Positions 1,003-63,208 of a DNA stretch of 64,000 nt are shown here, piece after piece. Under the pieces are notes generated by a model. The model was given only the letters and a program-made list of their open reading frames with translations, made no database searches and was not told the origin of the DNA. The stretch is taken from the IMG/VR virus record IMGVR_UViG_2648501839_000008; one strand, 5' to 3'. Both the position numbers and the translations under genes were made by a program. Source of the DNA: a virus. Taxonomy: Duplodnaviria; Heunggongvirae; Uroviricota; Caudoviricetes. The number at the start of each line of letters is the position of its first letter. The stretch's first letter is position 1.

Positions 1003-1034
1003 AAACAAATTGTTTTCTAGTATTAGTTAATTAG
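1003..1034 (-). promoter_or_regulatory. Class-A palindromic site (AAACAAnTTGTTTTCT) upstream of the helicase gene
   Basis: aaacaaattgttttct followed by gttaattag, about 20 nt upstream of the ATG at 982. Confidence 0.5.
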
Positions 1035-1776
1035 ATAGGGGATCAATAAACCGCCGTGCTTCTTCCAGTTCTTCTGGAAAGTGGGCGGAAATAAGGCGCT
1101 CTGGAACGATTTCCATTAGCCAGATAGCGGAGAAAATTGCGCGTATGCGCTTGCTGCGGGGGATGGCGCGTAAACGCTCCAGAATCCACTCAAAATAGCT
1201 TTCCTGAATCGGGTTGAACTGCATGTCTCCCATATGCTTAAAGCTAACCAGAGAGTCATCCAGACGGGTTGTTGCGCGTCTGGCTAATTTCTCTTCAAAT
1301 ATCTCAATCAGTTCTGGCTGCCACAAATGCTGTGGGCGAGGCAGCTTGTCCCACAAACGTCGTGCAGCTGCGGAAAGCACGGTGGAGATAAAGTAGTCGT
1401 ATGAGCAACAATAGCGGTCAGCAAACTGGCGTGCTTTCCATAGCGACGTTTTATTGGCAGTCGACAACTCCTGATAAGGCAGGCGTTTTAACCCGGTGGT
1501 GAACGGAGCTGTTTCAAAGTGTTCGCGACCGTGCGTCAGCATGATATTTGAGTACTGACGTTTGTATGCCTCCGTAAACAGACAGGTGGCCATAAGAGGA
1601 TGCATGTCGCGGTAATCAAACCACTTCGTATCGAAGAGTTCAGCCTCGTCTTTGCAGCGCGACAAACCAATGTTTTCAGCAACCCACTTATCCATAACAG
1701 CGGTATTCCACTCTGTCATGAAGTCGTACTGGTCGTTGTCGATGGTGTCGAAAAAGATTTGGCTCATGTGGCTCAC
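1027..1776 (-). CDS. Hypothetical protein (249 aa), upstream of the helicase
   Basis: ORF track; track start is GTG, probable ATG at 1765-1767; no recognisable motif. Confidence 0.4.
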   Translation of the reverse strand: MSHMSQIFFDTIDNDQYDFMTEWNTAVMDKWVAENIGLSRCKDEAELFDTKWFDYRDMHPLMATCLFTEAYKRQYSNIMLTHGREHFETAPFTTGLKRLPYQELSTANKTSLWKARQFADRYCCSYDYFISTVLSAAARRLWDKLPRPQHLWQPELIEIFEEKLARRATTRLDDSLVSFKHMGDMQFNPIQESYFEWILERLRAIPRSKRIRAIFSAIWLMEIVPERLISAHFPEELEEARRFIDPLSN

Positions 1777-1779
1777 CTG

Positions 1780-1800
1780 GTAGGTAGTTACTTACTTATC
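1780..1800 (-). promoter_or_regulatory. Class-B palindromic site (TAAGTAAGTA..TACTTACTTA family)
   Basis: gtaggtagttacttacttatc immediately upstream of the gene starting at 1776. Confidence 0.45.
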
Positions 1801-1884
1801 ACAATGAGCTGATGATAGCGATTGGTGGCAGTTTTTGGAAGTGGAAACGGAAGGGAGTTGTTCTGGTGGGTATCTTTTGAAAGA

Positions 1885-1939
1885 CCTGCTTCCGTATATT
1901 TAATAAGTTACTTATTATTTATATATATACAGAAACAGG
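1885..1939. repeat. 55-bp AT-rich palindrome, copy 1 (near-identical to 35506-35560)
   Basis: cctgcttccgtatatttaataagttacttattatttatatatatacagaaacagg; outer arms CCTGCTTC/GAAGCAGG-like, directly 3' of the KAP NTPase gene. Confidence 0.7.
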
Positions 1940-1949
1940 TCATGAATAC

Positions 1950-3644
1950 TTAATTATTAAGCAATCTGCTCACACGTAGTTTGTTAAGACTTGATCTAGA
2001 GGCCAGTTTCGTTAATGCACCTATTGCTTTATTCGTGATTTTTTGCTGTTCTTCTGTTAGTTCTTGCATACTTTTGAATCTGAGCAACCCCTTTCTCACT
2101 AAATCCAAAGCATCCTGATTGCGGGATAGTATCCACTTTAAATAATCATCTTCAGAGAAACTGTTAAGATATGCTATGTCACTATGATTAAATTTGCCTT
2201 CAATTATTTTGTATAAAACATTCTCTAAATTAGTCTCTTCAGGCTTCTTATCCATCAATTTTTTTTGAATTAGCAGACCTAACTTTTCGTTACCAAATAT
2301 CTCTACATACAAATTCCGAAAAGCAGTATAAGCATCATCTTGGCTAACAAAGGCATCTGCATATGCCTCTATATAACTATCACAATCAATCTCCAATCTA
2401 TTTAAGATATCAATCAAGCCTATGAAGTGAGCAACAGGTATGTGTGAAAGATTGTCGTTAATTACACATTTTATCTTAGAAATAAACTCAGATTCATTGT
2501 CCTTGAATGAGTCACTAAAAATATCCCAAACATTGTTAACATCACATAAAGCCTTGTGTTCTTTATATTGTTTATTTTTTTCTTCTATTATACCTCGAAT
2601 ATTGCTTTCAGTAGAAAGATAACCATTCTTGAGATAAAAATCTATGTCATCATCGAAAGCAATTTCCGCTCGTTCATAAATAACATCAAGACTATTAATA
2701 AATGAATATACAGAATCATCCTTTTTATCATCTAACATGTAATCAAATACATGTATGTTTTTAATTGATTCTTTAAACAAGGCATAATCAACACCTGGAA
2801 CACCAGAATAGTAAACCACTGAAAACAGAACCAATCTATTGATAAAACTTTCTCTAACCTTATCCTCTGCCAAGCTTAGCTCATTCCTAAGATTAACCAG
2901 AGATGTTTTTATTTTATTTAATATACGGATATTTTTAATGCCTAAGTCATTTGCTAAGACTTTTAACAAAAGAAAATCAGAATCAGTTTCATAAAAAACT
3001 TTACGTAAGTTCTTCTCAGGCGTAGGATCGTATTTTATTTCGACATCAATTACTTTTTCTCTGTACTCTAAAAACTGTTTTTTTGCAGTTTCATCATGTA
3101 AATTATCTTCATTTAAAATTAGAACAACTTTGCAACCTTTTCTTCTTGCTAATTCATCAATTACCCCCATAATTTCTTTAACTTCTAGCGAATTACCTTT
3201 TCTTTCAACATCATCAATACAAACCAAATAATTATTAACAAATTTATACTCAAGAGATGACAGCAGGTTATCTGTTTTGAACCCAAAAAAATCGTTCTTT
3301 CCGAAATGTATTAAAAATTTTGACAAGGAGTTGTATTTCAACCATCCCCAAAACCCATTTCTATAACGAATCATAGTTCGATCCGTTTCAGATAAAATTA
3401 GTTCTTTATATTTCTTTTCATTAATTGGTGTGGCACAATGATAAAGAGCTTTTTTAATATCACCAATAGAGTTAACCCCAAACAAAGAAACATACGAATA
3501 TGCATTAAAATCTAATCCTTCAGAATGCTTAGTATAAAAACTATTCCAATAATGAGTTTTACCAACGCCCCAATCTCCTTTTATGACGGCAACCCGATGA
3601 TCTGAAACTAGAAAATTTTTTAGAAATGATTCTATCGATTCCAT
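1950..3644 (-). CDS. KAP-family P-loop NTPase (candidate defence or abortive-infection protein), AT-rich cargo gene
   Basis: N-terminal Walker A VIKGDWGVGKTH, Walker B-like LVCIDDVERKG about 140 aa later, long helical C-terminal region; AT-rich codon usage unlike neighbours; probable ATG at 3644 with AAAGGA RBS (track start 3653 is TTG). Confidence 0.55.
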   Translation of the reverse strand: MESIESFLKNFLVSDHRVAVIKGDWGVGKTHYWNSFYTKHSEGLDFNAYSYVSLFGVNSIGDIKKALYHCATPINEKKYKELILSETDRTMIRYRNGFWGWLKYNSLSKFLIHFGKNDFFGFKTDNLLSSLEYKFVNNYLVCIDDVERKGNSLEVKEIMGVIDELARRKGCKVVLILNEDNLHDETAKKQFLEYREKVIDVEIKYDPTPEKNLRKVFYETDSDFLLLKVLANDLGIKNIRILNKIKTSLVNLRNELSLAEDKVRESFINRLVLFSVVYYSGVPGVDYALFKESIKNIHVFDYMLDDKKDDSVYSFINSLDVIYERAEIAFDDDIDFYLKNGYLSTESNIRGIIEEKNKQYKEHKALCDVNNVWDIFSDSFKDNESEFISKIKCVINDNLSHIPVAHFIGLIDILNRLEIDCDSYIEAYADAFVSQDDAYTAFRNLYVEIFGNEKLGLLIQKKLMDKKPEETNLENVLYKIIEGKFNHSDIAYLNSFSEDDYLKWILSRNQDALDLVRKGLLRFKSMQELTEEQQKITNKAIGALTKLASRSSLNKLRVSRLLNN

Positions 3645-3695
3645 TAGTATCAATCCTTTAATTCATATATTGGGCGTAACAAACGCCCAATATAA

Positions 3696-4055
3696 TCAAC
3701 CTTTCTTCATCAACTCTCGTTTAATTTCATCGGTACGCATCGTAACGTCGGCAGCTGTGATCGCCTCGTTAAGCTTCACGATGTCCTCGATTTCCTGCGG
3801 TGACTTCTCTGCCAGATGGAAAATGGCTGCTCGAATCACGTCAGAACGAGTGAACTTCTCGAAGCGAGGGATGAACTTCATCATCTCCAGCAGTTCGAAG
3901 TATTCGTCTTCCAGTGACATTGTGCGGCTTTTAATTTTCTCTTTGCCACGAGTCGGGCGTCCCTGTGGTCTGACTGGTTGGCGCAAAGGAGTTGTGTTCT
4001 TAGCCGGTGCATCAGGCTCTTTGCGCTTTGCTAGGTCACCCATTTTCATGGACAT
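3696..4055 (-). CDS. ParG-like ribbon-helix-helix partition protein
   Basis: 119 aa, basic disordered N-terminus plus C-terminal RHH-like segment; start overlaps parA stop (TAATG coupling). Confidence 0.45.
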   Translation of the reverse strand: MSMKMGDLAKRKEPDAPAKNTTPLRQPVRPQGRPTRGKEKIKSRTMSLEDEYFELLEMMKFIPRFEKFTRSDVIRAAIFHLAEKSPQEIEDIVKLNEAITAADVTMRTDEIKRELMKKG

Positions 4056-4723
4056 TATTCTTCTTCCTCCAGACTCAACAGATAATCTACAAATTCTTCA
4101 AACTCGGCTTCAGCCTTTTTGTCGCGCTCGCTACCGGTCATTTCGAAGATAGAACGACCAGACTCTTCCGCATCATCGTAGACGTTGCGGTTATATAGAT
4201 TGACTGGCGCAGACTCGATGCCAAACGTCTCGACAATCTCTTTAGCCGCCAGAATGCGAGACACTTGTGATGGCAAAGCCGGGCACTGGTTCATGACCGC
4301 GCGGACCTTCACTTTATCGTTTACATTACGAACATTGTCGATAATAGGATCGATGTCACGCAGAGATTTCAAATCACGACGCTTAGGACGAAGCGGGATA
4401 ATGATAACGTCGGCCATCAGCATCGCTTGTCGCTGAATTTCGGAGTCAAAGCCACCAGCATCTACCACTACAAACTCAGCTCTACCCTGAAGCGATTTTA
4501 GGTGCTTAATGATGTCATCCTGGACGTATGCAAAAGGAATCAGCTCAAGGTCTTCGTTCTGTCGACGGTCTTCACACCAGCTCGTTGTCGTGCGCTGAAT
4601 ATCTATATCGGTAATATAAACCTTCTTCTTCTTTTTGACTTTCAGGCAAACGGCAATTTGCTGGGCAACGGTGGATTTGCCAGGCCCGCCCTTTGTGCCG
4701 CCAACCACAAAGATCTTGGTCAT
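4055..4723 (-). CDS. parA: ParA/MinD-family partition ATPase
   Basis: Deviant Walker A GGTKGGPGKST at the N-terminus; 222 aa, small type-Ib ParA size; RBS AAGGGA. Confidence 0.7.
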   Translation of the reverse strand: MTKIFVVGGTKGGPGKSTVAQQIAVCLKVKKKKKVYITDIDIQRTTTSWCEDRRQNEDLELIPFAYVQDDIIKHLKSLQGRAEFVVVDAGGFDSEIQRQAMLMADVIIIPLRPKRRDLKSLRDIDPIIDNVRNVNDKVKVRAVMNQCPALPSQVSRILAAKEIVETFGIESAPVNLYNRNVYDDAEESGRSIFEMTGSERDKKAEAEFEEFVDYLLSLEEEE

Positions 4724-4742: not shown

Positions 4743-4774
4743 ATATAATTATCGTCTGAAACAACTTGTTTTCT
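4743..4774 (-). promoter_or_regulatory. Class-A palindromic site upstream of parA
   Basis: tataattatcg + gaaacaacttgttttct. Confidence 0.5.
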
Positions 4775-17852: not shown

Positions 17853-18443
17853 TTACATAAGCTGGTCGATGGTGATAGAAGAACTCACGACCTGTGAGCC
17901 AACTAAAATTTCCTCACCATAGATAAGCTGTACAGGGTTCCCCTGGTTTGTTGTGTTTTGAGGTCCATCGAAGTAATAAGAGTTCGAGTTATCCGCCTGC
18001 CTCACACTTTCGTTAGTGGCTTGCGGAGATATGATTTGCGCTATACCACCCATCATCAGTGACAAACCGAGAGGCGCAAGAGCGGGCACCCATATCGAGG
18101 CAACCATTAATACTGCTCCAACAACCGTCTGAAACCACCCAAAAGCAGATCCACCACTTCCTCGCGGAACAGGGGTAATGCGGATTTTGGCAATGTTGTC
18201 AGACTGCCCCATCATCTGATATTCACTCTCGTCCACAGACCACTTGTGGCCCTGTTTATTGGTGATCTGGATGTGGTATCTGTCATAGGTTTTGATGTTG
18301 CGCTTCATCCATGCTTTAAACCCAGGCTTGTTGGCCTCAATTAAATCCAGAGCCTGTTTTGTATTGCGCACCTTTAAATGCCAGTGGCGGCCAAAATGTT
18401 TGGCCATAGGGCCGCCAAGCTGCACATGAACTAACTCAGACAC
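17853..18443 (-). CDS. Tail assembly protein I-like
   Basis: Position after K and before J; hydrophobic C-terminal half like lambda gpI. Confidence 0.65.
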   Translation of the reverse strand: MSELVHVQLGGPMAKHFGRHWHLKVRNTKQALDLIEANKPGFKAWMKRNIKTYDRYHIQITNKQGHKWSVDESEYQMMGQSDNIAKIRITPVPRGSGGSAFGWFQTVVGAVLMVASIWVPALAPLGLSLMMGGIAQIISPQATNESVRQADNSNSYYFDGPQNTTNQGNPVQLIYGEEILVGSQVVSSSITIDQLM

Positions 18444-35378: not shown

Positions 35379-35417
35379 AGATCCCTCTAAAACACACAGA
35401 GCGCGTCCATGCGCTCT

Positions 35418-35475
35418 AAAACAACTTGTTTACTGCATTTTCTAACCAACTTGTTTTCTGGGTTGTTTAATTAGG
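35418..35475 (-). promoter_or_regulatory. Class-A palindromic sites (two) upstream of the packaging operon
   Basis: aaaacaacttgtttact and aaccaacttgttttct + ggttgtttaattagg. Confidence 0.5.
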
Positions 35476-40390: not shown

Positions 40391-40392
40391 TT

Positions 40393-40671: not shown

Positions 40672-40697
40672 TCACGCTATCAATTAGGGAGACAAAG

Positions 40698-41162: not shown

Positions 41163-41166
41163 TGAC

Positions 41167-44056: not shown

Positions 44057-44539
44057 TTACACGCCATCAAGGATGTGGATGCGGTTGCTTGCGTATACAT
44101 TCAGCATAAAGTTAGCGCAAAACAGTTTCCATGTGTCAACGCCAGCGGTATACGTAATGTTTTTGCATTTAATCGCATTGTTGGCGATCCGCATCCCCTG
44201 CGATACTGCTTCATCGTCGGAAAATTTGAACGACGATTGAGTTTTAATCCAGAAAGAAATCTGCGTAGCGAACTCAATCAGCTTGGACTGGCAGAATCGC
44301 CCGGAGCGCACCGGAAAGACGAACGTTCCGAATCCAGAATTTACCACATACGCTTTCTCAAATACCCGCGAGTAACGACGATTGCCAATGATGTCGCGTG
44401 CAATAATGCATTTTTCTTGTGCTGACAGTTCTACCGTCTCATTGTCGCGCCATGCACCAAGTACTCGTTTTTCAATGTCAGAGAACGTTACAGCGATATT
44501 GCCATGTGCGGGTGCGTTTACAGTAGCGATAAAATTCAT
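44057..44539 (-). CDS. Hypothetical early protein (160 aa)
   Basis: ORF track; terminator hairpin GGGCCAGAAACGGCCC just 3' of the stop. Confidence 0.4.
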   Translation of the reverse strand: MNFIATVNAPAHGNIAVTFSDIEKRVLGAWRDNETVELSAQEKCIIARDIIGNRRYSRVFEKAYVVNSGFGTFVFPVRSGRFCQSKLIEFATQISFWIKTQSSFKFSDDEAVSQGMRIANNAIKCKNITYTAGVDTWKLFCANFMLNVYASNRIHILDGV

Positions 44540-44560
44540 GATTAATTCCTTATCGTAAAT

Positions 44561-44593
44561 AACAAATTGTTTTCTTGTTTGTGTTAATTATCG
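44561..44593 (-). promoter_or_regulatory. Class-A site (palindrome plus extended -10-like element)
   Basis: aacaaattgttttct + gtgttaattatcg. Confidence 0.5.
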
Positions 44594-44743: not shown

Positions 44744-45031
44744 TCAGTGGAGCAGACCGATGTCGATGGTATCCCCTGAATCATCCACACGGATCATCAG
44801 CATGGCAAAGGCGTTTAGTGGATAGCTTGCGTGCCATTCAGGGAAGCGGTCATCTCGCATGAAGTCGGCAATGTCGTAAACGCATCCCTCAAAGTGGAAG
44901 AATCGCGTGCTTACCTGCTCATCATAATCCACATGATCCATTTCTTGCTGTTCTGTTTCCGGCAAGTCCAGCCATGATTCGAGGAATACATTTTGTGCTT
45001 TGGTGGTAATGGTGAAATCAGTCATGAGCAT
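44744..45031 (-). CDS. Small highly acidic early protein (95 aa)
   Basis: ORF track; about 20 Asp/Glu versus 5 Lys/Arg. Confidence 0.4.
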   Translation of the reverse strand: MLMTDFTITTKAQNVFLESWLDLPETEQQEMDHVDYDEQVSTRFFHFEGCVYDIADFMRDDRFPEWHASYPLNAFAMLMIRVDDSGDTIDIGLLH

Positions 45032-45044: not shown

Positions 45045-45110
45045 AAACATGTTGTTTTCTTGTTGTTGTAATTATCGCAGCGAGATAAAGGCAGAAAACA
45101 AATTGTTATC
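45045..45110 (-). promoter_or_regulatory. Class-A sites (two palindromes flanking TGCGATAATTA)
   Basis: aaacatgttgttttct + tgttgtaattatcgca + gaaaacaaattgttatc. Confidence 0.5.
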
Positions 45111-45675: not shown

Positions 45676-45987
45676 TCAGGCTATTGCCATCACTGATGCT
45701 CTCTGAATTTCTTGCTGGGCCACGCGGTTAACTTCCATCAAGGCCAGTTCGAGCTGATGTTCCGGCCACATTCTTTGAAATGCCACCCATCCTTTTCCAC
45801 GCTGGCGACGAACATTCATTACATAACGAGTAAAGGTGTTTTTATCGAAAGACACCGCTGTTTCACGGAACAGACGAATAGAAGTTCCATTGGCAACGAT
45901 GTCTAGCAAAGTTAATTGAGCAACCAGTGCAGGCTTCTCTTTTCTCTTCTGGTCTTTGTCCAGACCAAGAACCAATGATTTTTTCAT
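45676..45987 (-). CDS. Hypothetical early protein
   Basis: ORF track trimmed to the ATG at 45987. Confidence 0.4.
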   Translation of the reverse strand: MKKSLVLGLDKDQKRKEKPALVAQLTLLDIVANGTSIRLFRETAVSFDKNTFTRYVMNVRRQRGKGWVAFQRMWPEHQLELALMEVNRVAQQEIQRASVMAIA

Positions 45988-45997: not shown

Positions 45998-46040
45998 TAA
46001 ACAACTTGTTTTCTCAATGGCGTAAATAATACCAGTAAGA
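45998..46040 (-). promoter_or_regulatory. Class-A site
   Basis: taaacaacttgttttct. Confidence 0.5.
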
Positions 46041-46140: not shown

Positions 46141-46470
46141 TTACGCGAATACCTCAAGAAACTCCTGAACGTCCCAATGCTGGACGAGGTGAAGATAGAC
46201 CTTAGAAATCACGTCATTTTCGCTATCGCATGTGAAGTAGTACTTCTGGCTGCGGTTGTATGTGTCCACACAAAATTCGCTCATATCCATAAAGTCAGCA
46301 TCTTCACCCATGTCGCAAATCATCAAAGCAGGTGCGTCATCACGAGTCATCAGCTCAAGCACCCACCGCGAATTGATCAGAGTGGAAGACCAACCTTCTA
46401 ACTCATAAAACTGATCAAACTCTTTTTGAGTTAATTTCTTGATTTGGTTGATGTCGATATTTGCAAACAT
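46141..46470 (-). CDS. Small acidic early protein
   Basis: ORF track trimmed to the ATG at 46470 (AAGGA RBS); the track start lies inside the class-A palindrome. Confidence 0.4.
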   Translation of the reverse strand: MFANIDINQIKKLTQKEFDQFYELEGWSSTLINSRWVLELMTRDDAPALMICDMGEDADFMDMSEFCVDTYNRSQKYYFTCDSENDVISKVYLHLVQHWDVQEFLEVFA

Positions 46471-46482: not shown

Positions 46483-46520
46483 AAACAACATGTTTTCTTG
46501 ATGGTGTTATTATCGCAATA
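46483..46520 (-). promoter_or_regulatory. Class-A site
   Basis: aaacaacatgttttct + gatggtgttattatcgcaat (TGcGATAAT on the minus strand). Confidence 0.5.
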
Positions 46521-46999: not shown

Positions 47000-47960
47000 G
47001 AGTTGAATAAATACGAAAAAGGAGGCGACACCCCTCCTTCCCTCCCCACTTATACATACCTGGCTTCTTCGCTATGCATGTTGTGTTTTATCTGTCTCAA
47101 CCTCTCTATAGGCGTTAATGCTCACTCCTTCCAGAATGTTCTATACGGCGACTATTTCTGTTGGTGAATTGGGTGTGTTGTTTTCTCTGTCGGTGTATGT
47201 GGTTTCGTTCGTTTTGCGGTGGTTCTTCTATGGGGTGTTCTCGTCGTTTTGGTGATTGTTCTTCTCCATGTATGGAGTAATGGCAGGTGGGCGAATCCTT
47301 TCGTTATTGTGTTTGAGTTGTTTGTCTGGAGTGTGTGAAGGGCTTTTGTAGTTATTCGTGTATTGGGTAATGGCGTTTCCCGTGATTGTTATGTTTCGTG
47401 TCTTTTGGGATTGAGAGAATCCTTGCGGTTACAGGCTTCGTTGGGTTTTCAGTGATTCTGGTGTTTCTTCGCTGTTTGGGGAATGGCGTGTCGTGGGTAT
47501 CGCGCGTATGAATGTTTTCGGATTGCCTGTGAAAGTTAGGTTGGCTGTCCGGTAGCCTGGGGAGAAGAGGTGGGTCTTTTCGGTAGCCTGCCATAAAGAG
47601 GTTGGTTGTTTTGGGGAATGGCATGTGTGTTATTTAGTTGTTTTGTTATAGCTGAAAATAAGTTGTTTATATAGTTATGTAACGCAATGGGAGTGATTTT
47701 GAGCGTGTGTTTTTTCTTGGTAGTGTGTTGGGTCGTCTGTGGTGAAAATTGGACGCTGTGGCGCTGTCTGCTGCGTAGAATTACGGGTATAAGAAGTGAT
47801 GTGTGAATACGTCAATTTTTTAGACCAAATCGGGTGAAAGCGTTGACGTTTCGTTGATCTGTTATTTAGTTGTTTTCTTATTGGTATAAACAACGTTAAC
47901 CTATTGATATTTAAAGGTGTGATTGCAGGTATGGAAGAAGAGTAGTGGCGATCAACGGAT
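47000..47960. repeat. Noncoding, strand-biased (G+T-rich on plus) degenerate repeat region
   Basis: No credible ORF; recurrent GGGGAATGGCGTGT-like and CGGTAGCCTGG..GAGGTGGGT-like units; the latter also occur at 44615-44690. Confidence 0.5.
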
Positions 47961-49383: not shown

Positions 49384-49683
49384 CTACCAACACCAGCACT
49401 CAAGCCCTTCAACGATCGGCGCACCACAATCAAAATGTACAGAGTCAAAGCCTACATCAAGTACTTTCTGAATGTTAGCAATCGCGCCTTCGGATATACC
49501 ATATCGACGCAAGTCGTCTTTCCAGACATCATCCTGTAACCCGGCGTGGACAATACAACCGCCATCAATTTGTGAAACCCAATCCAGCTCATTGCTTGCG
49601 ATCATGAATCGGCGAGCATCTTCCTCTGATGTATGAGATGAACTGATCAATGCCACCTGGTAGGCTTGGGTAATGTTCAACAT
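49384..49683 (-). CDS. Hypothetical early protein
   Basis: ORF track trimmed to the ATG at 49683 with GGAG RBS. Confidence 0.4.
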   Translation of the reverse strand: MLNITQAYQVALISSSHTSEEDARRFMIASNELDWVSQIDGGCIVHAGLQDDVWKDDLRRYGISEGAIANIQKVLDVGFDSVHFDCGAPIVEGLECWCW

Positions 49684-49695: not shown

Positions 49696-49762
49696 GAAAC
49701 AATTTGTTTTCTTATGTGGCTTATTATCTCAATCAACAAAAGGTAGAAAACAAATTGTTTTA
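49696..49762 (-). promoter_or_regulatory. Class-A sites (two palindromes)
   Basis: gaaacaatttgttttct ... ttattatctc ... gaaaacaaattgtttta. Confidence 0.5.
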
Positions 49763-49845: not shown

Positions 49846-51879
49846 TTACTTAACCTGGTGGCCAGGTTTAGCACCAGCATCCGGGCTTAACAGGAAGATA
49901 TCTTTCCCGCCGGGGCCAGCAGCCATCACCATACCTTCGGAGATGCCGAAGCGCATCTTACGCGGAGCCAGGTTAGCCACCATAATGGTGTGACGACCAA
50001 TCAGTGCCTGTGGGTCTGGATAAGCAGAACGGATGCCTGAGAAGACATTGCGTTTTTCACCGCCGAGATCCAGCGTCAGGCGCAGCAGTTTGTCAGAACC
50101 TTCAACAAACTCTGCGTTTTCGATCAGTGCCACGCGCAGGTCAACTTTGGCAAAGTCGTCAAAGGTGATGGTTTCCTGAATCGGGTCGTCTGCCAGCGGG
50201 CCAGTAACTGGCGCGGCAGTAGCTTTCACTTCTTCTTTAGACGCTTCCACCAATGCTTCCACCTGTTTCATGTCGATACGGTTATACAGTGCTTTGAACG
50301 GATTCACTTTATGGCCCAGCAGCGGTTGCTGGATGCCATCCCAGGTCAGTTCCGTATTCAGGAATGCTTCCGCACGTTCTGTCAGTTTCGGCAGTACCGG
50401 TTTCAGGTAAGTCATCAGCACGCGGAACAGGTTGATGCCCATTGAGCAAATCGCCTGCAGGTCAGCATCGCGACCTTCCTGTTTTGCGACTACCCAAGGA
50501 GCCTGCTCGTCGACATAGCGGTTAGCCAGGTCAGCCAGTGCCATGATTTCACGGATAGCTTTACCAAATTCGCGGCTTTCCCACGCTTCACCAATCACTT
50601 CAGCGGCATCAGTGAAGGTTTTGTACAACTGCGGGTCAGCCAGCTCGCTTGCCAGCACACCGTCAAAACGCTTATTGATAAAGCCAGCGTTACGGGACGC
50701 CAGGTTAACCACTTTGTTCACGATATCGGCATTCACACGCTGAACGAAATCCTCCAGGTTGAGATCGATATCATCAATGCGCGAAGAGAGTTTCGCAGTG
50801 TAGTAGTAACGCAGGCTGTCAGCGTCAAAATGATTCAACCAGGTGCTGGCTTTAATAAAGGTGCCGCGAGACTTGGACATCTTCGCGCCGTTCACCGTCA
50901 CATAGCCGTGAACAAACAGGTTGGTCGGCTTGCGGAAGTTGCTGCCTTCCAGCATGGCAGGCCAGAACAGGCTGTGGAAGTAAACGATATCTTTACCGAT
51001 GAAGTGGTACAGCTCGGCGGTGGAGTCTTTCTTCCAGTATTCATCGAAGCTGGTAGTGTCGCCGCGCTTGTCGCACAGATTCTTGAAGGAACCCATGTAG
51101 CCAATCGGTGCGTCCAGCCAGACGTAGAAATATTTACCCGGCGCGTTCGGAATTTCAAAACCGAAGTAAGGTGCGTCGCGGGAGATATCCCACTGTTGCA
51201 GACCAGATTCAAACCACTCCTGCATTTTGTTTGCCACCTGCTCCTGCAACGCACCGCTGCGGGTCCATGCCTGCAACATTTCGCTGAAAGAGGGCAGATC
51301 AAAGAAGAAGTGTTCAGAATCACGCATTACCGGGGTAGCACCAGAAACCACCGATTTCGGCTCGATCAGTTCAGTCGGGCTGTAGGTCGCGCCGCAAACT
51401 TCACAGTTATCGCCGTATTGATCTGGCGCTTTACATTTCGGGCAGGTGCCTTTCACAAAACGATCCGGCAGGAACATGCCTTTTTCCGGGTCGTACAACT
51501 GAGAGATAGTGCGATTTTTAATAAAACCGTTCTCTTTCAGGCGAGTATAGATAAGCTCAGACAACTGACGGTTCTCTTCGCTGTGCGTCGAGTGATAGTT
51601 GTCATAGCTGATGTTAAAGCCTGCGAAATCAGTCTGGTGTTCCTGACTCATTTCGCCAATCATCTGCTCCGGTGTGATACCAAGTTGCTGTGCTTTCAGC
51701 ATGATCGGCGTACCGTGGGCATCGTCGGCACAGATGAAATTAACCTCGTGGCCGCGCATTCGCTGGTAACGAACCCAGACATCAGCCTGGATGTGCTCCA
51801 GCATATGGCCGAGGTGGATTGAGCCGTTAGCGTACGGCAGCGCGCACGTCACCAGAATTTTCTTCGCGACTTGGGTCAT
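49846..51879 (-). CDS. metG: Methionyl-tRNA synthetase
   Basis: 677-aa translation from [26 protein letters not shown] (HIGH-type motif) through KMSKS to the C-terminal tRNA-binding domain; enterobacterial MetRS; true ATG at 51877-51879 (track ORF extended upstream). Confidence 0.95.
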
Positions 51880-52036
51880 AGTAGGCATTACTTCTTTGTA
51901 GTGAAAAGGGGCTTGATAGTAACAAAATGGCCTTATGTCTGCCATGTGATAACAGCATTTCTCATAAATGATTAAATGTCGCAGCTGGAGTACACTACAA
52001 GGCGACAATTGCGCAAATTAAAATAAAGGAGACGGG

Positions 52037-53137
52037 ATGAGCGAGTCCAAATCGCCGGATGCCCTGAGAGCAATGGTAGCCGGTACGCTGGCTAATTTTC
52101 AGCACCCAACCCTGAAACACAACCTGACTACGCTTAAAGCGTTACACCATGTTGCGTTGATGGATGACACACTGCATGTCGAACTAATCATGCCTTTCGT
52201 GTGGAATAAGCCTTTTGAAGACCTGAAAGAGCAATGTAGTGGTGATCTGCTCCGTATCACTGGCGCAAAGGCTATTGACTGGAAGCTGTCGTACAACATT
52301 GCCACGCTTAAGCGCGTCAAAAACCAACCAGGCATTAATGGTGTTAAGAATATTATCGCCGTAAGCTCAGGCAAGGGCGGTGTAGGCAAATCGTCCACAG
52401 CAGTAAACTTGGCACTGGCTTTGGCTGCTGAAGGTGCGAAAGTTGGTATTTTGGATGCCGATATCTATGGTCCATCAATTCCAACCATGCTGGGCGCGGA
52501 AAACCAACGTCCAACCTCACCTGACGGTACTCACATGGCACCTATCATGTCTCATGGCCTGGCAACCAACTCTATTGGTTATCTGGTCACCGACGACAAT
52601 GCAATGGTGTGGCGTGGACCGATGGCCAGCAAGGCGCTGATGCAGATGTTGCAGGAAACTCTATGGCCTGATCTGGACTATCTCGTTCTCGATATGCCGC
52701 CGGGCACTGGTGATATTCAGTTGACGCTGGCGCAGAACATTCCTGTAACTGGTGCGGTTGTGGTAACTACGCCGCAAGACATCGCGCTGATCGATGCGAA
52801 GAAAGGCATTGTGATGTTCGAAAAAGTCGAAGTGCCGGTACTAGGTATCGTCGAAAACATGAGTGTGCATATTTGCAGTAACTGCGGTCATCACGAGCCA
52901 ATTTTTGGCACCGGTGGCGCACAGAAACTGGCCGAGAAATACAACACGCAGTTGTTAGGCCAAATGCCACTTCATATCTCTCTTCGTGAAGATCTGGATA
53001 ACGGAACACCAACCGTTATTAGTCGTCCAGATAGCGAATTTACGGCTATTTATCGTGACCTCGCAGATCGCGTTGCTGCCCAAATGTATTGGCAAGGTGA
53101 AGTAATACCTGGCGAAATCGCATTCCGCGCAGTGTGA
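52037..53137 (+). CDS. apbC: Fe-S cluster carrier ATPase ApbC/Mrp
   Basis: Deviant Walker A SGKGGVGKSS, CxxC motif ...HICSNCGHH..., divergent from metG as in enterobacterial chromosomes; RBS AAGGAG. Confidence 0.9.
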   Translation: MSESKSPDALRAMVAGTLANFQHPTLKHNLTTLKALHHVALMDDTLHVELIMPFVWNKPFEDLKEQCSGDLLRITGAKAIDWKLSYNIATLKRVKNQPGINGVKNIIAVSSGKGGVGKSSTAVNLALALAAEGAKVGILDADIYGPSIPTMLGAENQRPTSPDGTHMAPIMSHGLATNSIGYLVTDDNAMVWRGPMASKALMQMLQETLWPDLDYLVLDMPPGTGDIQLTLAQNIPVTGAVVVTTPQDIALIDAKKGIVMFEKVEVPVLGIVENMSVHICSNCGHHEPIFGTGGAQKLAEKYNTQLLGQMPLHISLREDLDNGTPTVISRPDSEFTAIYRDLADRVAAQMYWQGEVIPGEIAFRAV

Positions 53138-53174: not shown

Positions 53175-53564
53175 CTACATCACAGGACAATCATCAAACT
53201 CGCCACTTCTTGCGTCGTTGATAATGTGAGTGATCACACCAAACACGGCATTGCTGCCCGTGCATCCATCATCATCCTTTGGCAATGCTTCCTTCTTACC
53301 AGTTCTTAAATCCTCCAGATGCTGACGTGGATACTTCCGGTATCTTTTTACGCGATATTCCCCATCCAGAGCACATACAAGAAGAGATCCATCAACAGGA
53401 GTCAGTGAGGAATCGACCACCAGCAATGCACCCTGCAATATTCCCTCACGATGATGACTATCAGCCGCCCTCATGAAGTAGGTCGCTGAAGGATGTCTAA
53501 TTATCTGCTGATCAAGAGAAATACGGCTCTCAGCATAATCCGCCGCAGGAGAAGGGAAGCCCAT
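53175..53564 (-). CDS. UmuD-like (LexA/S24 peptidase family) protein
   Basis: C-terminal domain aligns with the UmuD/LexA catalytic core (Ser in ...AADSHH..., Lys in ...RVKRYRK...); SOS box immediately upstream. Confidence 0.65.
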   Translation of the reverse strand: MGFPSPAADYAESRISLDQQIIRHPSATYFMRAADSHHREGILQGALLVVDSSLTPVDGSLLVCALDGEYRVKRYRKYPRQHLEDLRTGKKEALPKDDDGCTGSNAVFGVITHIINDARSGEFDDCPVM

Positions 53565-53580: not shown

Positions 53581-53600
53581 TACTGTATATGCATACAGTA
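53581..53600. promoter_or_regulatory. LexA (SOS) box
   Basis: TACTGTATATGCATACAGTA = CTGT-N8-ACAG consensus, about 17 nt upstream of the UmuD-like start. Confidence 0.75.
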
Positions 53601-57606: not shown

Positions 57607-58160
57607 TACGATGCCTCTAACTTATCTAACTCTTTCAGCCCTTCACGTACCGCGTTCACAATGCGTTCCAGATACTGGTATTTCGGGTTTGGTACCGTTG
57701 GCCAGTCGGCATACCACGGATCATCACCAAAGAGATTCAGCAGTTTGTTACCGACGCCGAAACAACAGCAGCTTTCTTTTACGTCATCGGCGTTTTCCGC
57801 CTCGTCCCACATTTCACGAGCCAGTACGGCGTCGATTTCTCTCTCTCTTCGTAACTTTATGATTTCTGACTTCACGAAAAGCAGATTTGCATCGTTGTCA
57901 TCGTCGACCGTGCTTCGCAGTTGAGAGTCGAAATAGCCGATTAGATACTCGTTGCTGACCCGCTTAATGAACGTCTGCACATCATCACCGCCCATAGCAA
58001 ACCAAGCCGCAGTCCACGCTTTTCCGTAGCAGATGATGGTGATTCTTCCCTTACCAGGTTCGTAGTTTTCAATCATTACTCGAACCGGATCGAGGCGTTC
58101 CAGATCCGTCAGCACAAAGGAAAGAACATCTATTTTTTCGACCTTCATGCAGCCTCCCAC
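57606..58160 (-). CDS. Hypothetical protein (184 aa)
   Basis: ORF track. Confidence 0.35.
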   Translation of the reverse strand: MGGCMKVEKIDVLSFVLTDLERLDPVRVMIENYEPGKGRITIICYGKAWTAAWFAMGGDDVQTFIKRVSNEYLIGYFDSQLRSTVDDDNDANLLFVKSEIIKLRREREIDAVLAREMWDEAENADDVKESCCCFGVGNKLLNLFGDDPWYADWPTVPNPKYQYLERIVNAVREGLKELDKLEAS

Positions 58161-58786
58161 GCGCTCCAGATCAGCGATTTGTGTTTTTCATAACGTTTGA
58201 TGTGTACCGGTTTCAGAAGCGCAATACCTTCAGTGACTTTCGCCATTGCGCTTAATAGCAACGGGTGTTCTATTCCTATCCTCTCCATGTACTCGACAAC
58301 ATCAGCGTTGGCACCAATCTCTTTGCCGTGAAAGAGTACGTCCAGCATCAGTTCTTTCTCTGCGAGGTAGACAGCTGAAAACTCGGGATCGCGACTCACG
58401 ATAGAAGAGGTATTGTCGAGCAGGTCAGCCAGCTTGATCATGCGCGTCTGCATGTCGAGATTTTGCTCCAGCTCCAGGACATTGATGATGAAACGCTGTA
58501 TTCGATTGCCGTCTTCTGGCCTTGCAATGTTGGTCAGAGCCTGAACCATTTCAGCTACGCGCTCACCGAAGTGATCACGAACCATCTCTATGGTTACATG
58601 GGTGTCTTCGACCACATCATGCAGAAGCGCCGCGATTTGCATCTCCACGGTTCCGTCATGCAATGCAACAATCTCTCGGACAGCAACCGGGTGGTTGATG
58701 TAGTCTTCGCCGGTATATTTTCTTTTCTGACCAACGCCACCATGAGCGCCAGCGGCGAACATATGAGCTTCGGAAATACTAGACAT
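58145..58786 (-). CDS. HD-domain hydrolase, SpoT/RelA-hydrolase-like (small alarmone hydrolase candidate)
   Basis: ...HPVAVREIVALHDGTVEMQIAALLHDVVEDT... matches the HD motif arrangement of (p)ppGpp hydrolase domains. Confidence 0.55.
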   Translation of the reverse strand: MSSISEAHMFAAGAHGGVGQKRKYTGEDYINHPVAVREIVALHDGTVEMQIAALLHDVVEDTHVTIEMVRDHFGERVAEMVQALTNIARPEDGNRIQRFIINVLELEQNLDMQTRMIKLADLLDNTSSIVSRDPEFSAVYLAEKELMLDVLFHGKEIGANADVVEYMERIGIEHPLLLSAMAKVTEGIALLKPVHIKRYEKHKSLIWSAWEAA

Positions 58787-58795
58787 TCTTAACTC

Positions 58796-58854
58796 CGTTG
58801 TTTTCTAGTTGTGGTTATTTTCACAAATAAGAAAAGGTAGAAAACAATTTATTT
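58796..58854 (-). promoter_or_regulatory. Class-A sites upstream of the nine-gene early operon
   Basis: ccgttgttttct + gttgtggttattttcac + gaaaacaatttattt. Confidence 0.5.
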
Positions 58855-58905
58855 AAGGCCACAACTTATGGCCTTTATTTATTCATGCCGAAGGATTTGT
58901 AGCGT

Positions 58906-60032: not shown

Positions 60033-60053
60033 TTAAGTAAGTATTTACCTATC
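60033..60053 (-). promoter_or_regulatory. Class-B palindromic site
   Basis: ttaagtaagtatttacctatc. Confidence 0.4.
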
Positions 60054-61737
60054 ATTTAACGCGTTTGAAAACGTATACGCTGACTGTGATCCCTGTGTCT
60101 TCAAACTCGTTGGTAAACGACTTCCCTCTGGCATAAACGTAATTATCCATCGTCATCCAGTCCAGTATTGGCGCAGTGCCCGGCAATACTGCTACAAGAC
60201 GCCCGCCGACTTTCAGATGCCCCAGCGCAGCCATCGTGTGCTCTCTATGACGACCAAGCGAGTACGGCGGGTTCATAACGATTTTGTCGAACTGATAACC
60301 TGCGTTGTCCTCAGACCACTTTATGAAGTCGCAGCAAATCGTGTTCGTATACCCTTTTCCACGCAGGATATCAGCGAAGAGAGGTGCGATTTCTATGCAG
60401 GTAACATCTTCCAGATCGGCGTTAATATAGGCCAGAAGATCCCCACGTCCGGCTTGAGGCTCCAGCAGCTTCTCACCAGACTTCAATTCAGTGGCTCTGG
60501 CAACGTACTCAGCAATCAAGCGTGGGGTAGGGTAGAACTGGTGTGATTTAGTATCCGGTATTAAACCGGTAGCCACAATCGTATTTAGCGTATGGCCGAT
60601 GTCATACGGGAACTGCCAGTGCTTTTTCTCCTGCACGCCGCCAATGAAGCTCAGTGTGCGCTCAAGCTCTTCCACCTGCGACTTCTGGAGAGCTGAATCA
60701 GAGAAGTACCATACGCCTTTGTCTTTGCTCAATCGCCCGTCACGAAGCGCAGTGCGAACCGGCACAGAGATCGTCTTCTGGATTAACCCGAACTGCTTTG
60801 GTGCCCGTGTTTTTGGCGCAGTTCGGCATGGCGCGGGGATTGCAGCAGGCATACTGTAAGCCAGCACCTCATTCAACTTCCAGGCCACGTCAGGATGTAT
60901 TTCAAAGTGAACGTTGCCGTTCTTGAACATCTTCACGCGCATCAGATTTCCATCGACGTTCATCCAGTCACCGGTCTGGCAGTCGTTTGCCCTATACGCA
61001 GCTGATAGCACCTCAGCAGTGCGGTTGATGGTAATAAATTCTTTGTGCGCGAAGAAATGAAGCAAGACACGCAGATCGTCGATGTAGTCCTCTTTGCGAT
61101 AGTTCACGCTAACGCTGTCCCGCCAGAAATCAGAAATGCAGTCAGCGATTATCAGCCGCTCGCTGAAACCGTTTGTCTTATTTGTCTTGTGCGCAGGACT
61201 CAGCGCCTTAAACAAGCCATACACGCGCTCAGAGAGATATTTGTGCCTGTCATTCAGCAAATTAAGCATCGTGGGTATGACCGTTTCTGCTTTGAACTCC
61301 GGTACACCAACGAACTCTTTAACCTTCATCTGGTAGCCGGTTCTGTCAGTTTTGATGACTTCCTGTTTGCCCTCTATAAACTGCTCGCGCCACTCATCTC
61401 GACGGGAAGCTGGCATGATCAGCAAAACGTTAGTCATGTCCGTGACCTTCCTCCAGTACTCGGCCCAAATATTCTGTTTCACCCATTCCAGATCGACTTT
61501 ATCCAACCAACCTCGATTTAAACGCGAGCGATCTTCATCTGGTCGATGGTTTAGTCTCAGCAGGCGATTAATCATGTTGTGGCGTTCGTCGCCATAAACG
61601 AAGTCGTGTACCTGATACATGAAGGCGATCTCTTTCTCGCACTCGGCCACGATTTCGTGGATGACATTCATTTCCTGACGATAGTCGATAGCCGTGTTTG
61701 AGCTGGCATCGTCGATGATAGAAAGGGCTGTATTCAT
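60052..61737 (-). CDS. N6-adenine DNA methyltransferase with large N-terminal domain
   Basis: Motif I-like LEPQAGRGDLL and motif IV NPPY in the C-terminal about 200 aa; 561 aa. Confidence 0.65.
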   Translation of the reverse strand: MNTALSIIDDASSNTAIDYRQEMNVIHEIVAECEKEIAFMYQVHDFVYGDERHNMINRLLRLNHRPDEDRSRLNRGWLDKVDLEWVKQNIWAEYWRKVTDMTNVLLIMPASRRDEWREQFIEGKQEVIKTDRTGYQMKVKEFVGVPEFKAETVIPTMLNLLNDRHKYLSERVYGLFKALSPAHKTNKTNGFSERLIIADCISDFWRDSVSVNYRKEDYIDDLRVLLHFFAHKEFITINRTAEVLSAAYRANDCQTGDWMNVDGNLMRVKMFKNGNVHFEIHPDVAWKLNEVLAYSMPAAIPAPCRTAPKTRAPKQFGLIQKTISVPVRTALRDGRLSKDKGVWYFSDSALQKSQVEELERTLSFIGGVQEKKHWQFPYDIGHTLNTIVATGLIPDTKSHQFYPTPRLIAEYVARATELKSGEKLLEPQAGRGDLLAYINADLEDVTCIEIAPLFADILRGKGYTNTICCDFIKWSEDNAGYQFDKIVMNPPYSLGRHREHTMAALGHLKVGGRLVAVLPGTAPILDWMTMDNYVYARGKSFTNEFEDTGITVSVYVFKRVK

Positions 61738-61750
61738 AATTACACCATTA

Positions 61751-61784
61751 AATAATTTGTTTTCTGATTGGTGTAATTATCGCA
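61751..61784 (-). promoter_or_regulatory. Class-A site
   Basis: aataatttgttttct + gtgtaattatcgca (TGCGATAAT on the minus strand). Confidence 0.5.
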
Positions 61785-61878: not shown

Positions 61879-62445
61879 TTAGAGTGCGTATTGCGTTTTG
61901 TGCGGCTGCTTATTCAAGTCATGGCGATGCGTGAGCTCCCGCATCATGTCTTCAAGGCGACTCTTTGTGTCGTCGAGCTGGTCGGCCATTGCACCTAAAA
62001 GCTGGCGAACGGCCATCGGATCGTCGCTGTTTAGTGATGGCATTTTATAACCTGCTTTAGAAGACATAAGGTTGATTGCAGACATCAACATCGTTAGAGA
62101 GGATTTAAGCCCGGCAATTTCACGATCTTTGCTGGCAATAATCGTCTCACTTTTGTTACCGTCATCAGTTCCTTGAGTCTCGCTCACCATATCCAAAGTC
62201 GCTTGCAACTTATCAGCTCTCTCTTTTTCAGCAAGGTAATGAACACCGAAATGGTGTGCCAAAGCTACAATCTGAGTTGGCTCTTCAAAGGTGGAATTAA
62301 AATTAAGTATTGTAAACAGTCTCTCAAATATGGAAACGTCTTCTATTCCTCGAAGAATGGATAACATTTTGACAAGTTCATTAGCATCCATTTCTTCGAA
62401 TAGGGCGTTTTGTTCATCAGCTATTGCTTTGCATTTCTCGCACAT
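61879..62445 (-). CDS. Hypothetical protein (188 aa)
   Basis: ORF track. Confidence 0.35.
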   Translation of the reverse strand: MCEKCKAIADEQNALFEEMDANELVKMLSILRGIEDVSIFERLFTILNFNSTFEEPTQIVALAHHFGVHYLAEKERADKLQATLDMVSETQGTDDGNKSETIIASKDREIAGLKSSLTMLMSAINLMSSKAGYKMPSLNSDDPMAVRQLLGAMADQLDDTKSRLEDMMRELTHRHDLNKQPHKTQYAL

Positions 62446-62463
62446 GTGTTTTCCTTAATGCTT

Positions 62464-62499
62464 AAACAAGTTGTTTTCTTATTGGTTTTATTGTGATGT
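62464..62499 (-). promoter_or_regulatory. Class-A site
   Basis: aaacaagttgttttct + ttggttttattgtgatg. Confidence 0.5.
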
Positions 62500-62584
62500 G
62501 GCATATAAGGGGAGCAAGCTAAACGTAAAGGTGCAAACTCTCTATTTCGGTCAACGAAACACAAGGGCCAAATGGCCCTTGTCA

Positions 62585-62743
62585 TTAACACTTTGCTTTA
62601 CGAACTAACGGATAAGCGAAGTAGATCGCCAAACCAATGAGGACGCCATCAGAAATGACAGACATCATCTTTCCCGTAAAATCCACCAACACCGCCATCA
62701 CCAGAAGAGCAATGACGATCACAAGCCGGAATCTCTCAAGCAT
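62585..62743 (-). CDS. Small hydrophobic peptide (52 aa, two predicted TM segments), not in the ORF track
   Basis: Hand translation MLERFRLVIVIALLVMAVLVDFTGKMMSVISDGVLIGLAIYFAYPLVRKAKC; ATG overlaps the TerB-like stop (TAATG). Confidence 0.35.
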   Translation of the reverse strand: MLERFRLVIVIALLVMAVLVDFTGKMMSVISDGVLIGLAIYFAYPLVRKAKC

Positions 62744-63168
62744 TAGAGATAAGCATCCAGTGACAACTGAAGCGCCTGGGCGATCTTTTTCAGTGCCTGC
62801 TCTTCTTGTTCACCAATGCCGTCCTGATCGGCAATATCAAGGCACAGACACAGAACATCGACCGCCTCTGGAGTACCCGCAATATCAGACAGCTCACGAA
62901 TAGCCTGTGCATTAGCAGAACGAGGGGACGCTTCGTAACGAGCACGGATATTGGCGCTCATTTGGGCAATTTCACCAGCAAACGGAGAAAACGCAGGCAG
63001 AGCTGCAATTGTCTTCTCAAGAATGGCAATTTCTTTTGCGTCACATGTGCCGTCGGCATAGGAGATCATGTACGCGCCCCACACGGTGGCCTCAACCGCA
63101 TCACGGTTCTCCATTTTTTTGACTTCGATAACTGCTTTACGAGTTTTCTTTTTGAAGAAACCTAACAT
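62743..63168 (-). CDS. TerB-like domain protein
   Basis: 141 aa with TerB-like paired acidic helices (...YADGTCDAKEIAILE... and ...DIADQDGIGEQEEQALKKIAQ...). Confidence 0.45.
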   Translation of the reverse strand: MLGFFKKKTRKAVIEVKKMENRDAVEATVWGAYMISYADGTCDAKEIAILEKTIAALPAFSPFAGEIAQMSANIRARYEASPRSANAQAIRELSDIAGTPEAVDVLCLCLDIADQDGIGEQEEQALKKIAQALQLSLDAYL

Positions 63169-63191
63169 GTGTTTTCCTTTTGTTATTTGTC

Positions 63192-63208
63192 AAAACAAGT
63201 TGTTTTCT
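63192..63208 (-). promoter_or_regulatory. Class-A site
   Basis: aaaacaagttgttttct. Confidence 0.5.

Follow-up and report, generated by a model that had tools for sequence, protein, structure and literature searches.

A conserved 16-base box at the gene starts of SSU5/pHCM2/pMT1-type phage-plasmids: a putative operator and two candidate regulators

Introduction

The control sites closest to the one reported here are known from both plasmids and phages. In the plasmid prophages P1 and P7, about 20 promoter-proximal copies of the C1 operator are dispersed over 100 kb at early, replication and other operons and are conserved between relatives. The stoperators of cluster A mycobacteriophages, which are read by one repressor (gp71 of L5), are many short sites in one orientation in short intergenic gaps, and in the IncP plasmid RK2 a 13-bp palindrome with a free central base serves the KorB/KorA system at a dozen promoters. 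At the RNA level, RegA of T4 is a phage-encoded protein that shuts down many mRNAs via A/U-rich sites near their starts, and FljA of Salmonella phase variation is reported to act on fliC mRNA post-transcriptionally (PMC2652032). In this study a 16-base box was analysed in a stretch of 64,000 nucleotides (IMG/VR virus record IMGVR_UViG_2648501839_000008, Caudoviricetes; hereafter the window) from a phage-plasmid of the SSU5/pHCM2/pMT1 type. A copy of the box heads at least 13 gene units, and its best single reading, to which we give somewhat less than even confidence, is that of a DNA operator.

Phage-plasmids of this type, among them Y. pestis pMT1, S. Typhi pHCM2 and many plasmids of Klebsiella, occur commonly in clinical Enterobacterales. 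No description of the box, or of any regulator-target pair of SSU5-type elements, was found in the searchable literature, where the motif appeared in no paper in a phage context; likewise nothing was found there on how roughly 100 phage genes are silenced in these elements.

Results

The box, AGAAAACAAnTTGTTT, was far more frequent than expected by chance. The pattern AGAAAACAANTTGTTT, with up to two mismatches and with palindromic sites counted on both strands, matched 25 times in the window against 0.48 expected, and none of 100 dinucleotide-preserving shuffles reached 25; the 9-mer TTGTTTTCT occurred 17 times against 1.45 expected. With a position weight matrix (PWM) built from the sites, 16 boxes scored 19 bits or more. 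Twelve of these were intergenic, although the intergenic space left by deliberately generous open reading frame (ORF) calls was just 5.2 kb (8% of the window), and shuffled intergenic DNA held a mean of 0.01 and a maximum of one. Three of the four boxes in called coding sequence overlapped over-extended ORF starts only, and the one at 40403 lay truly within a gene. A preliminary description of this DNA had proposed one motif family, to be given up if it was no more frequent than in shuffled intergenic sequence; both counts speak for keeping it, and the sites listed there were right within 1-5 nt (Table 1).

The two halves of the box were not equally conserved. The left 9-mer, AGAAAACAA, was nearly invariant, and the right half, TTGTTT, was looser (variants TTGGTT, TTATTT, TTGTTA and ATGTTT), still carrying 1.2-2.0 bits per position and completing a perfect palindrome. 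The true palindrome was the 13-mer core AAACAAnTTGTTT, a perfect 6+6 with a free central base; the AG(A) extension was not mirrored on the right side, which usually continued with A. The preliminary description had overlooked the strong asymmetry of the box as a whole.

Thirteen boxes lay on the minus strand, each co-oriented with a minus-strand gene and ending 4-40 nt 5' of its start codon. The genes behind them were those for the helicase, ParA and TerS (the last with two tandem boxes) and nine further ORFs. Three boxes (45093, 49745 and 58839) were reversed, each lying upstream of a forward box at a start-to-start distance of 48 bp; they had no genes of their own and lay over the -35 position of three promoters, likewise in SSU5. 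An orientation bias of the stoperator type, 13 forward against three reversed and each reversed copy paired with a forward one, was found. The earlier claim that all sites precede genes held for the forward boxes, but not for the reversed ones, and the site at 58791 was a left half-box only (AGAAAACAACGGAGTT), with the Shine-Dalgarno (SD) sequence in place of the right half; orthologous sites in two related loci (L198 and L010) likewise kept the left 9-mer and had the right half replaced by the SD. The helicase box followed the upstream stop codon by 9 nt and had no good -10, as a stoperator inside an operon might, and most of the other boxes had a -10 of their own; the parA box was atypical in having a GATAAT downstream of it. 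The box-like match at 40403 was kept only in the E. coli/Cyrano lineage, with no match there in SSU5 or the pHCM2-like plasmid, and may be a coding coincidence.

Six of the 13 forward boxes (45045, 45999, 46483, 49697, 58791 and 61750) followed a sigma-70 extended -10, defined as TGn plus a hexamer with A2 and T6: TGCGATAAT three times, and TGAGATAAT, TGTGAAAAT and TGGTATTAT once each. No such element was found at 1003, 4759, 35444, 62464 or 63193, and outside these six sites and 44560 there was only a weak nnnAAT. The end of the hexamer lay 10 nt from the box (11 nt at 45999), giving the layout TGnGATAAT(T/A)A, 8 nt, box. The bipartite motif of the preliminary description was thus correct in lying between the -10 and the ribosome-binding site, but its extended -10 was present at these six boxes only, and its spacing needs correction: 'cacc' sits within the 8-nt spacer, not before it, and GATAAT ends 10 nt 5' of the box. 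The spacer, (A/T)ACACCAACA, was itself conserved, and the conserved block, gCCTTTT..TGnGATAAT.ACACCAACA-AGAAAACAA, exceeded the box. The spacing of 10-11 nt from a TGnGATAAT-type -10, present at 6-7 sites in the window, was also seen in most ortholog groups (422 distinct contexts from about 85 related loci). If transcription starts about 7 nt past the hexamer, transcripts would begin about 3-4 nt 5' of the box, and the 13-bp palindrome was found to start 13-14 nt past the hexamer, as in an operator dyad. A generic -35/-10 scan, which ignores extended -10 promoters, was uninformative (16 hits against 28.6 in shuffles).

The predicted leaders of the boxed genes were unstructured and rich in A and C. 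This bears on the other half of the earlier proposal, an operator or a leader RNA hairpin: a one-repressor operator stays the best single reading, but a hairpin, attenuator or known RNA family deserves next to no credence. The core is indeed self-complementary, and a read-through RNA with both a reversed and a forward box can fold into a stem of 16 bp (-12 to -17 kcal/mol, z -1.6 to -3.6). However, the folding energy of the box by itself is 0 to -1.8 kcal/mol, the predicted 5' untranslated regions (UTRs) are no more structured than shuffles (z about 0), and the natural variants TTGGTT, TTATTT and ATGTTT break the pairing without compensation; Rfam gave no match in the window. The folding of boxes and 5' UTRs essentially refutes this explanation. 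The terS leader was the exception to the lack of structure. Between its tandem boxes and the SD lay a separate hairpin (35389-35417, minus strand), GC-rich AGAGCGCatggacGCGCTCT followed by a T-run (-13.2 kcal/mol, z -2.4), and the same arrangement was present in Cyrano, SSU5, the pHCM2-like plasmid and pMT1. This terminator- or attenuator-like structure suggests that the late operon may be under antitermination or attenuation.

The window was about 97% identical to Escherichia phage Cyrano (pLF82; E. coli LF82) and to CMS-2020a over 71-85% of the queries; in parts, its identity was 87% to Salmonella phage SSU5 and about 79-81% to phage-plasmids of Klebsiella. The gene order ParB-helicase-orf92-fljA-like-...-terS was common to the window, L008 (a pHCM2-like locus), two further loci (L197, L198) and pMT1. 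Judging by these relationships, the whole window is a single SSU5-like phage-plasmid. The preliminary description had taken the boxes on both sides of metG-apbC as a tie between the flanks to one regulatory system, which is sound, because the window is one genome and metG and apbC are part of the element. Both genes (CYRAN_100/99), for MetG and an ApbC/Mrp-like ATPase, share a box-free divergent promoter region, and the ATPase is expressed in the lysogen (92).

The motif was also found in related phage genomes, where the preliminary description had suggested looking for it. In Cyrano it occupied orthologous places, with 13 forward boxes (including those at parA, helicase, nrdB and terS) and three reversed ones, and the same box was present in SSU5, the pHCM2-like plasmid, an Enterobacter element, Y. 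pestis pMT1 (NC_003134, for example at about 37412-37427 and 37904-37919) and 80 IMG/VR loci. Tandem boxes stood at terS in every relative examined. The core AAAACAAnTTGTT was kept where neighbouring proteins fell to 53-57% identity, and the flanking AG relaxed (CG, GG, AC) only in the most distant lineages. Since the box stands at at least 13 unit starts and is unchanged across the family, there is almost certainly one regulator, encoded by the element, that targets it. Its invariance across elements in six genera would also fit the site of a conserved host protein, and the three modules with reversed copies resemble 16-bp inverted repeats around an 80-bp core, as could the ends of a small promoter-carrying mobile element. 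Both possibilities are nevertheless very unlikely: to our knowledge the box matches no enterobacterial regulator consensus, most copies are single, target-site duplications are not visible, and the distribution of the box is tied to gene starts.

Expression was taken from the published transcriptome of the LF82/Cyrano lysogen (PMC9928086, S1 Table; per-gene counts only), in which the Cyrano background had a median of 9.8. Eleven of 14 box-fronted genes were at or near background (5.7-12.9): terS 7.1, CYRAN_47 7.8, CYRAN_58 5.7, nrdB 12.9, CYRAN_85 7.0, CYRAN_87 7.1, CYRAN_93 6.3, CYRAN_101 7.5, CYRAN_105 12.8, CYRAN_106 12.2 and CYRAN_110 6.7. The other three were parA (50), helicase (21) and CYRAN_111 (25). 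Because promoters of such quality are silent in the lysogen, this argues for active negative control of the box promoters. In the box-free operon, the UvsW-like helicase reached 46 and orf92 (CYRAN_117) 114, the highest value of any conserved gene of the lysogen; the FljA homologue CYRAN_114, identified by tblastn, stood at 18 in lysogeny broth (LB) and at log2 7-8 in other conditions.

This operon, helicase-orf92-...-fljA-like, contains two conserved and syntenic candidate regulator genes, each present in about 820-830 PLSDB plasmids, including 341 from Klebsiella and 62 from Y. pestis. No box stood before the operon or before the fljA-like gene in six lineages, so autoregulatory boxes were not found. 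The N-terminus of orf92 (KKTTYCQVALSDKANDKLGKFQ...MSKAEVINTILEQL) resembles a ribbon-helix-helix (RHH) by eye; its PHROG match was one of unknown function only, and a profile search of 1.84 billion representatives gave 27 hits, all in the same small family.

The second candidate was clearer in its family. The FljA-like protein matched PF03614 over profile positions 1-170 of 170 (E 2.5e-84, 281.7 bits against a cut-off of 24) and phrog_1444, 'transcriptional repressor'; it is 38-40% identical to bona fide FljA, the phase-1 flagellin repressors, with 23 invariant columns, and is predicted to form two tandem Hfq-like Sm domains. Neither this fold of FljA nor its core status in SSU5/pHCM2/pMT1-type plasmids was found in the searchable literature. 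In all box-bearing elements that were examined the gene belonged to the core and kept its synteny, and in Klebsiella the protein was better conserved than orf92 (79% against 52%). Because Klebsiella and Y. pestis are non-motile and have no flagellin to repress, the FljA homologue must, to go by its distribution, have targets within the element and serve the element itself. Moreover, the fliC leader of Salmonella and Citrobacter, ...AACAUCAAGUUGUAAUUGAUAAGGAAAAGAUCAUG, has CAAGUUGU in common with the box, and in both this sequence lies similarly far from the AUG; the part in common with the box core, CAAGTTGT, lies about 20 nt 5' of the AUG, and the chance of CAANTTGT in 60 nt was estimated at roughly 0.004.

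These observations lead to a competing explanation that we consider a real possibility, if a less probable one than a DNA operator. The box, at about +4 to +19 of the mRNA leader, would be an RNA operator read by the FljA homologue, which would prevent translation and leave the mRNA open to decay; about 25 leaders would then make up a RegA-like post-transcriptional regulon, by analogy with the action of Salmonella FljA on fliC mRNA. The full-length family match, the shared sequence in the fliC leader and the presence of the gene in Klebsiella and Y. pestis plasmids all favour this, and the better conservation of the protein agrees with a box that does not vary. Every forward box follows the presumed start, comes before the SD and points the same way as its gene, the A-rich 9-mer is retained in half-boxes, and the A/C-rich leaders lack structure. 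The explanation would pair two otherwise orphan conserved features and would account for orientation, half-boxes and invariance, and the fliC leader offers a direct precedent for it. On the other hand, the reversed copies lie upstream of promoters and would be transcribed only by read-through, and it is hard to see what self-complementarity of the core would mean to a protein that recognizes a single strand when the hairpin is negligible. The E. coli fliC leader lacks the shared 8-mer, the mRNA of the FljA homologue is low in LB lysogens next to that of orf92, and there would be no precedent for a lysogen silenced mainly after transcription. The box core does not vary across relatives, which leaves no co-variation with the protein by which the binder could be recognized.

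Several other features of the element were observed. Oddly for partition proteins, the Cyrano homologues of two adjacent ParB_N-domain genes, which are divergent from the helicase-orf92 operon, were silent in the lysogen (5.0 and 9.5). A low-GC stretch between the parA operon and the helicase unit (33.5% GC against about 47% elsewhere), with an ORF of 567 aa, is replaced by a different gene in Cyrano and is probably an accessory or defence insertion. An ORF-poor region of about 0.8 kb, the most G-depleted part of the window (70-74% A+C, 12-13% G when read on the minus strand), contains degenerate repeats at intervals of about 110-130 nt as well as two left half-boxes (47871, 47179) and has 70% identity to SSU5 over 940 nt. 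An origin, a rut-like region or a non-coding RNA region may lie there and, if the FljA homologue reads the box as RNA, the region could serve it as a decoy RNA. The gene for a UmuD-like S24 peptidase, whose Cyrano homologue is high in the lysogen (148), is preceded at a distance of 17 nt by a perfect LexA box, TACTGTATATGCATACAGTA; Cyrano is inducible by ciprofloxacin. A second SOS-like box, TACTGTTTATATGTACAGT, lies in the pHCM2-like L008 at about 18445-18463, just 5' of the gene 18171..18437, and no equivalent of it was found in the window.

Table 1. Boxes, candidate regulator genes and other features in the window (-, minus strand; +, plus strand)
Feature	Position	Strand	Details
DnaB-like helicase box	1003..1018	-	AGAAAACAATTTGTTT; 20 nt 5' of ATG (982); gene runs past window start; Cyrano 32077, before CYRAN_32
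Low-GC stretch	1950..4000		567-aa ORF 1950..3653 (-)
parA box	4759..4774	-	AGAAAACAAGTTGTTT; 35 nt 5' of parA (4055..4723); Cyrano 29256, before CYRAN_28 ParA
terS leader	35389..35459	-	tandem forward boxes 35444-35459 and 35419-35434, 25 bp apart; hairpin; SD; terS 34746..35378
Two ParB_N-domain genes	37400..38748	-	
Operon helicase-orf92-...-fljA-like	38831..41691		box-free, expressed in lysogen
orf92, candidate DNA-binding factor	40393..40671	+	CYRAN_117 homologue; 92 aa; RHH-like pattern by eye only
Box-like match in orf92	40403..40418	+	AGAAAACAACTTATTG, within codons 4-9
FljA-family gene, candidate RNA-binding factor	41167..41691	+	PF03614; CYRAN_114/SSU5_121 homologue; models as tandem Hfq-like domains
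Box of ORF 44057..44539	44560..44575	-	GATAAT 44587-44592 with upstream TTGACG (no extended -10); 20 nt 5' of ORF
Paired module	45045..45108	-	reversed 45093-45108; extended -10 TGCGATAAT 45071-45079; forward 45045-45060; ORF 44744..45025/45031
Box of ORF 45676..45987	45999..46014	-	extended -10 TGGTATTAT 46026-46034; 11 nt 5' of ORF
Box of ORF 46141..46470, with -10	46483..46517	-	AGAAAACATGTTGTTT; extended -10 TGCGATAAT 46509-46517; 12 nt 5' of ORF
ORF-poor, G-depleted region	47100..47900	-	
Paired module, DUF5983 ORF 49384..49683	49697..49760	-	reversed 49745-49760; extended -10 TGAGATAAT 49723-49731; forward 49697-49712; 13 nt 5' of ORF
metG and apbC/mrp-like ATPase gene	49846..53137	- and +	
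UmuD-like S24 peptidase gene	53175..53564	-	
LexA box	53581..53600		
Paired module, HD-domain ORF 58145..58786	58791..58854	-	reversed 58839-58854; extended -10 TGTGAAAAT 58817-58825; half-box AGAAAACAAcggag 58791-58806; 4 nt 5' of ORF
Place of ydfZ	58839..58875		one reversed box and a plus-strand terminator
Box of ORF 60052..61737 (DUF4942 in Cyrano), with -10	61750..61784	-	AGAAAACAAATTATTT; extended -10 TGCGATAAT 61776-61784; 12 nt 5' of ORF
Box of ORF 61879..62445	62464..62479	-	18 nt 5' of ORF; weak -10 CACAAT
Box of TerB-like ORF 62743..63168	63193..63208	-	24 nt 5' of ORF; -10 not convincing

Discussion

Based on the results of this study, the box can best be read as an operator in DNA that spans about +4 to +19 at sigma-70 promoters and would be bound by an element-encoded repressor, a reading to which we give a little less than an even chance, with the RNA operator of the FljA homologue a close second. 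The DNA operator was placed first because of the palindromic core, the fixed distance to the -10, the reversed copies over the -35 and the likeness to the P1 C1 operators. In the scheme that we infer for transcription starts, binding to DNA, repression and repressor alike, the box would be the negative-control site of a promoter-leader cassette set before many transcription units of SSU5-type phage-plasmids, i.e., small early-type genes, the genes for the DnaB-like helicase, ParA and NrdB, HD-domain, TerB-like and methylase-like genes, and the terS late operon. Host sigma-70 RNA polymerase would recognize a -10 ending 10-11 nt 5' of the box, in many cases the extended TGnGATAAT, and would begin transcription about 3-4 nt before it; the 13-bp core AAACAAnTTGTTT would span about +4 to +19 with its centre near +12, as in lac O1. 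A dimeric repressor encoded by the element would keep these promoters shut in the plasmid state and, at three of them, would also bind the reversed copy over the -35 position. The best guess for this repressor is a product of the box-free operon, with orf92 as the DNA-binding candidate.

Several observations weigh against a DNA operator. The box is asymmetric, and AGAAAACAA is kept where the right half has been lost to the SD (58791; L198; L010); a symmetric dimer does not explain such a retained asymmetric half. The box is also invariant across lineages whose proteins differ by 20-50%, which is unusual for an immunity operator, and the putative DNA-facing strand residues of orf92 differ between lineages (position 8, Y/H/F/L; position 12, A/Q/H) in which the box stays constant. 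Several boxes (terS, helicase and 63193) have no credible -10. Moreover, no DNA-binding protein could be tied to the box. For orf92 there was no Pfam match even at E <=10 and no relative in a hidden Markov model search against PDB sequences, and its AlphaFold2 (AF2) monomer model reached a predicted local distance difference test (pLDDT) score of 57. The preliminary description had named RHH and winged helix-turn-helix proteins as candidate repressors, a choice that these results for the RHH-looking 92-aa protein do not support, and the neighbouring FljA-family candidate had been overlooked. CYRAN_45, the helix-turn-helix 'putative repressor' of the Cyrano paper, was rejected as a family-wide binder, being lineage-specific and absent from SSU5, the window and the examined part of pMT1, and no further candidate was found among 10 more Cyrano proteins. 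Finally, the LF82 expression values do not separate transcriptional from post-transcriptional silencing, because translational repression of the FljA type reportedly leaves fliC mRNA undetectable.

It is also necessary to consider whether any dedicated factor is involved. Conservation extends beyond the box, the left 9-mer is found even where the palindrome is lost, the predicted leaders have no structure, and boxes flank variable cassettes (ydfZ in the pHCM2-like locus; CYRAN_108/109 in Cyrano). These points would be consistent with a strong consensus promoter joined to an A/C-rich leader, acting as a translation enhancer or downstream promoter region and spread by recombination, a situation that may be likened to the T5 and T4 early promoters; the reversed copies would then be A/T-rich UP-like elements or scars of cassette exchange. 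We regard this as improbable. Such extended -10 promoters should fire with host polymerase alone, yet in the lysogen their genes are silent and something must keep them shut; moreover, a leader or an enhancer does not need the right half that is conserved here and makes the palindrome perfect. As to the cassettes themselves, L008 carries a plus-strand ydfZ between two plus-oriented boxes (18524-18860), the corresponding place in the window has a single reversed box (Table 1), and in Cyrano (97190-97937) CYRAN_108/109 separate the reversed box from its forward partner. The repeated box cassette may be a recombination joint.

Whichever molecule is read, the box provides a map of the units that make up its regulon and points to two candidate regulators that can be tested. 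Dispersed control sites near the promoters of temperate elements are a kind already known, and the box is a new one among them; the link to FljA and the Hfq fold would be considerably newer if confirmed. A tentative model, which we think somewhat doubtful, is that the FljA homologue is a global post-transcriptional repressor of tandem Hfq fold that binds the first 20 or so nt of about 25 mRNAs, including those of terS, parA and the replicative helicase, and thereby helps to keep the elements quiescent or to time the lytic programme; Salmonella FljA would then be a domesticated copy and the fliC leader a mimic of the box. If true, the RNA operator would provide a rare multi-target translational repressor governing a temperate element, and for FljA a tandem Hfq-like fold and an evolutionary origin.

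Comparison with the systems described above shows both likeness and difference. T4 RegA would be the counterpart if the box is read as RNA, but its sites overlap the AUG and are poorly conserved, whereas those reported here are invariant and lie 4-40 nt upstream; no RegA homologue turned up in the window, where no search was aimed at it. In the case of FljA, the element carries a true PF03614 member and the fliC leader shares CAAGUUGU; the differences are one known target against the 25 or so that there would be here, an identity of 38-40%, and an RNA binding that for the phage-plasmid protein is a prediction. RK2 resembles the element in its 13-bp palindrome, and the element encodes two ParB_N proteins; unlike a KorB/KorA pair, however, these two genes are silent in the lysogen, and the ParB_N domain alone was detected. 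Stoperators share the number, shortness and orientation of the sites, but they are asymmetric roadblocks inside operons, whereas most copies here come right after a -10. No C1-like gene is annotated in Cyrano or SSU5, and the P1 C1 operator, ATTGCTCTAATAAATTT, had no match in the window at up to three mismatches. That operator is an asymmetric 17-mer, whereas the box has a palindromic core and is also found at the late terS operon. In scale, the dispersed C1 operators of P1 match the element, with its 25 or so promoter-proximal sites per genome.

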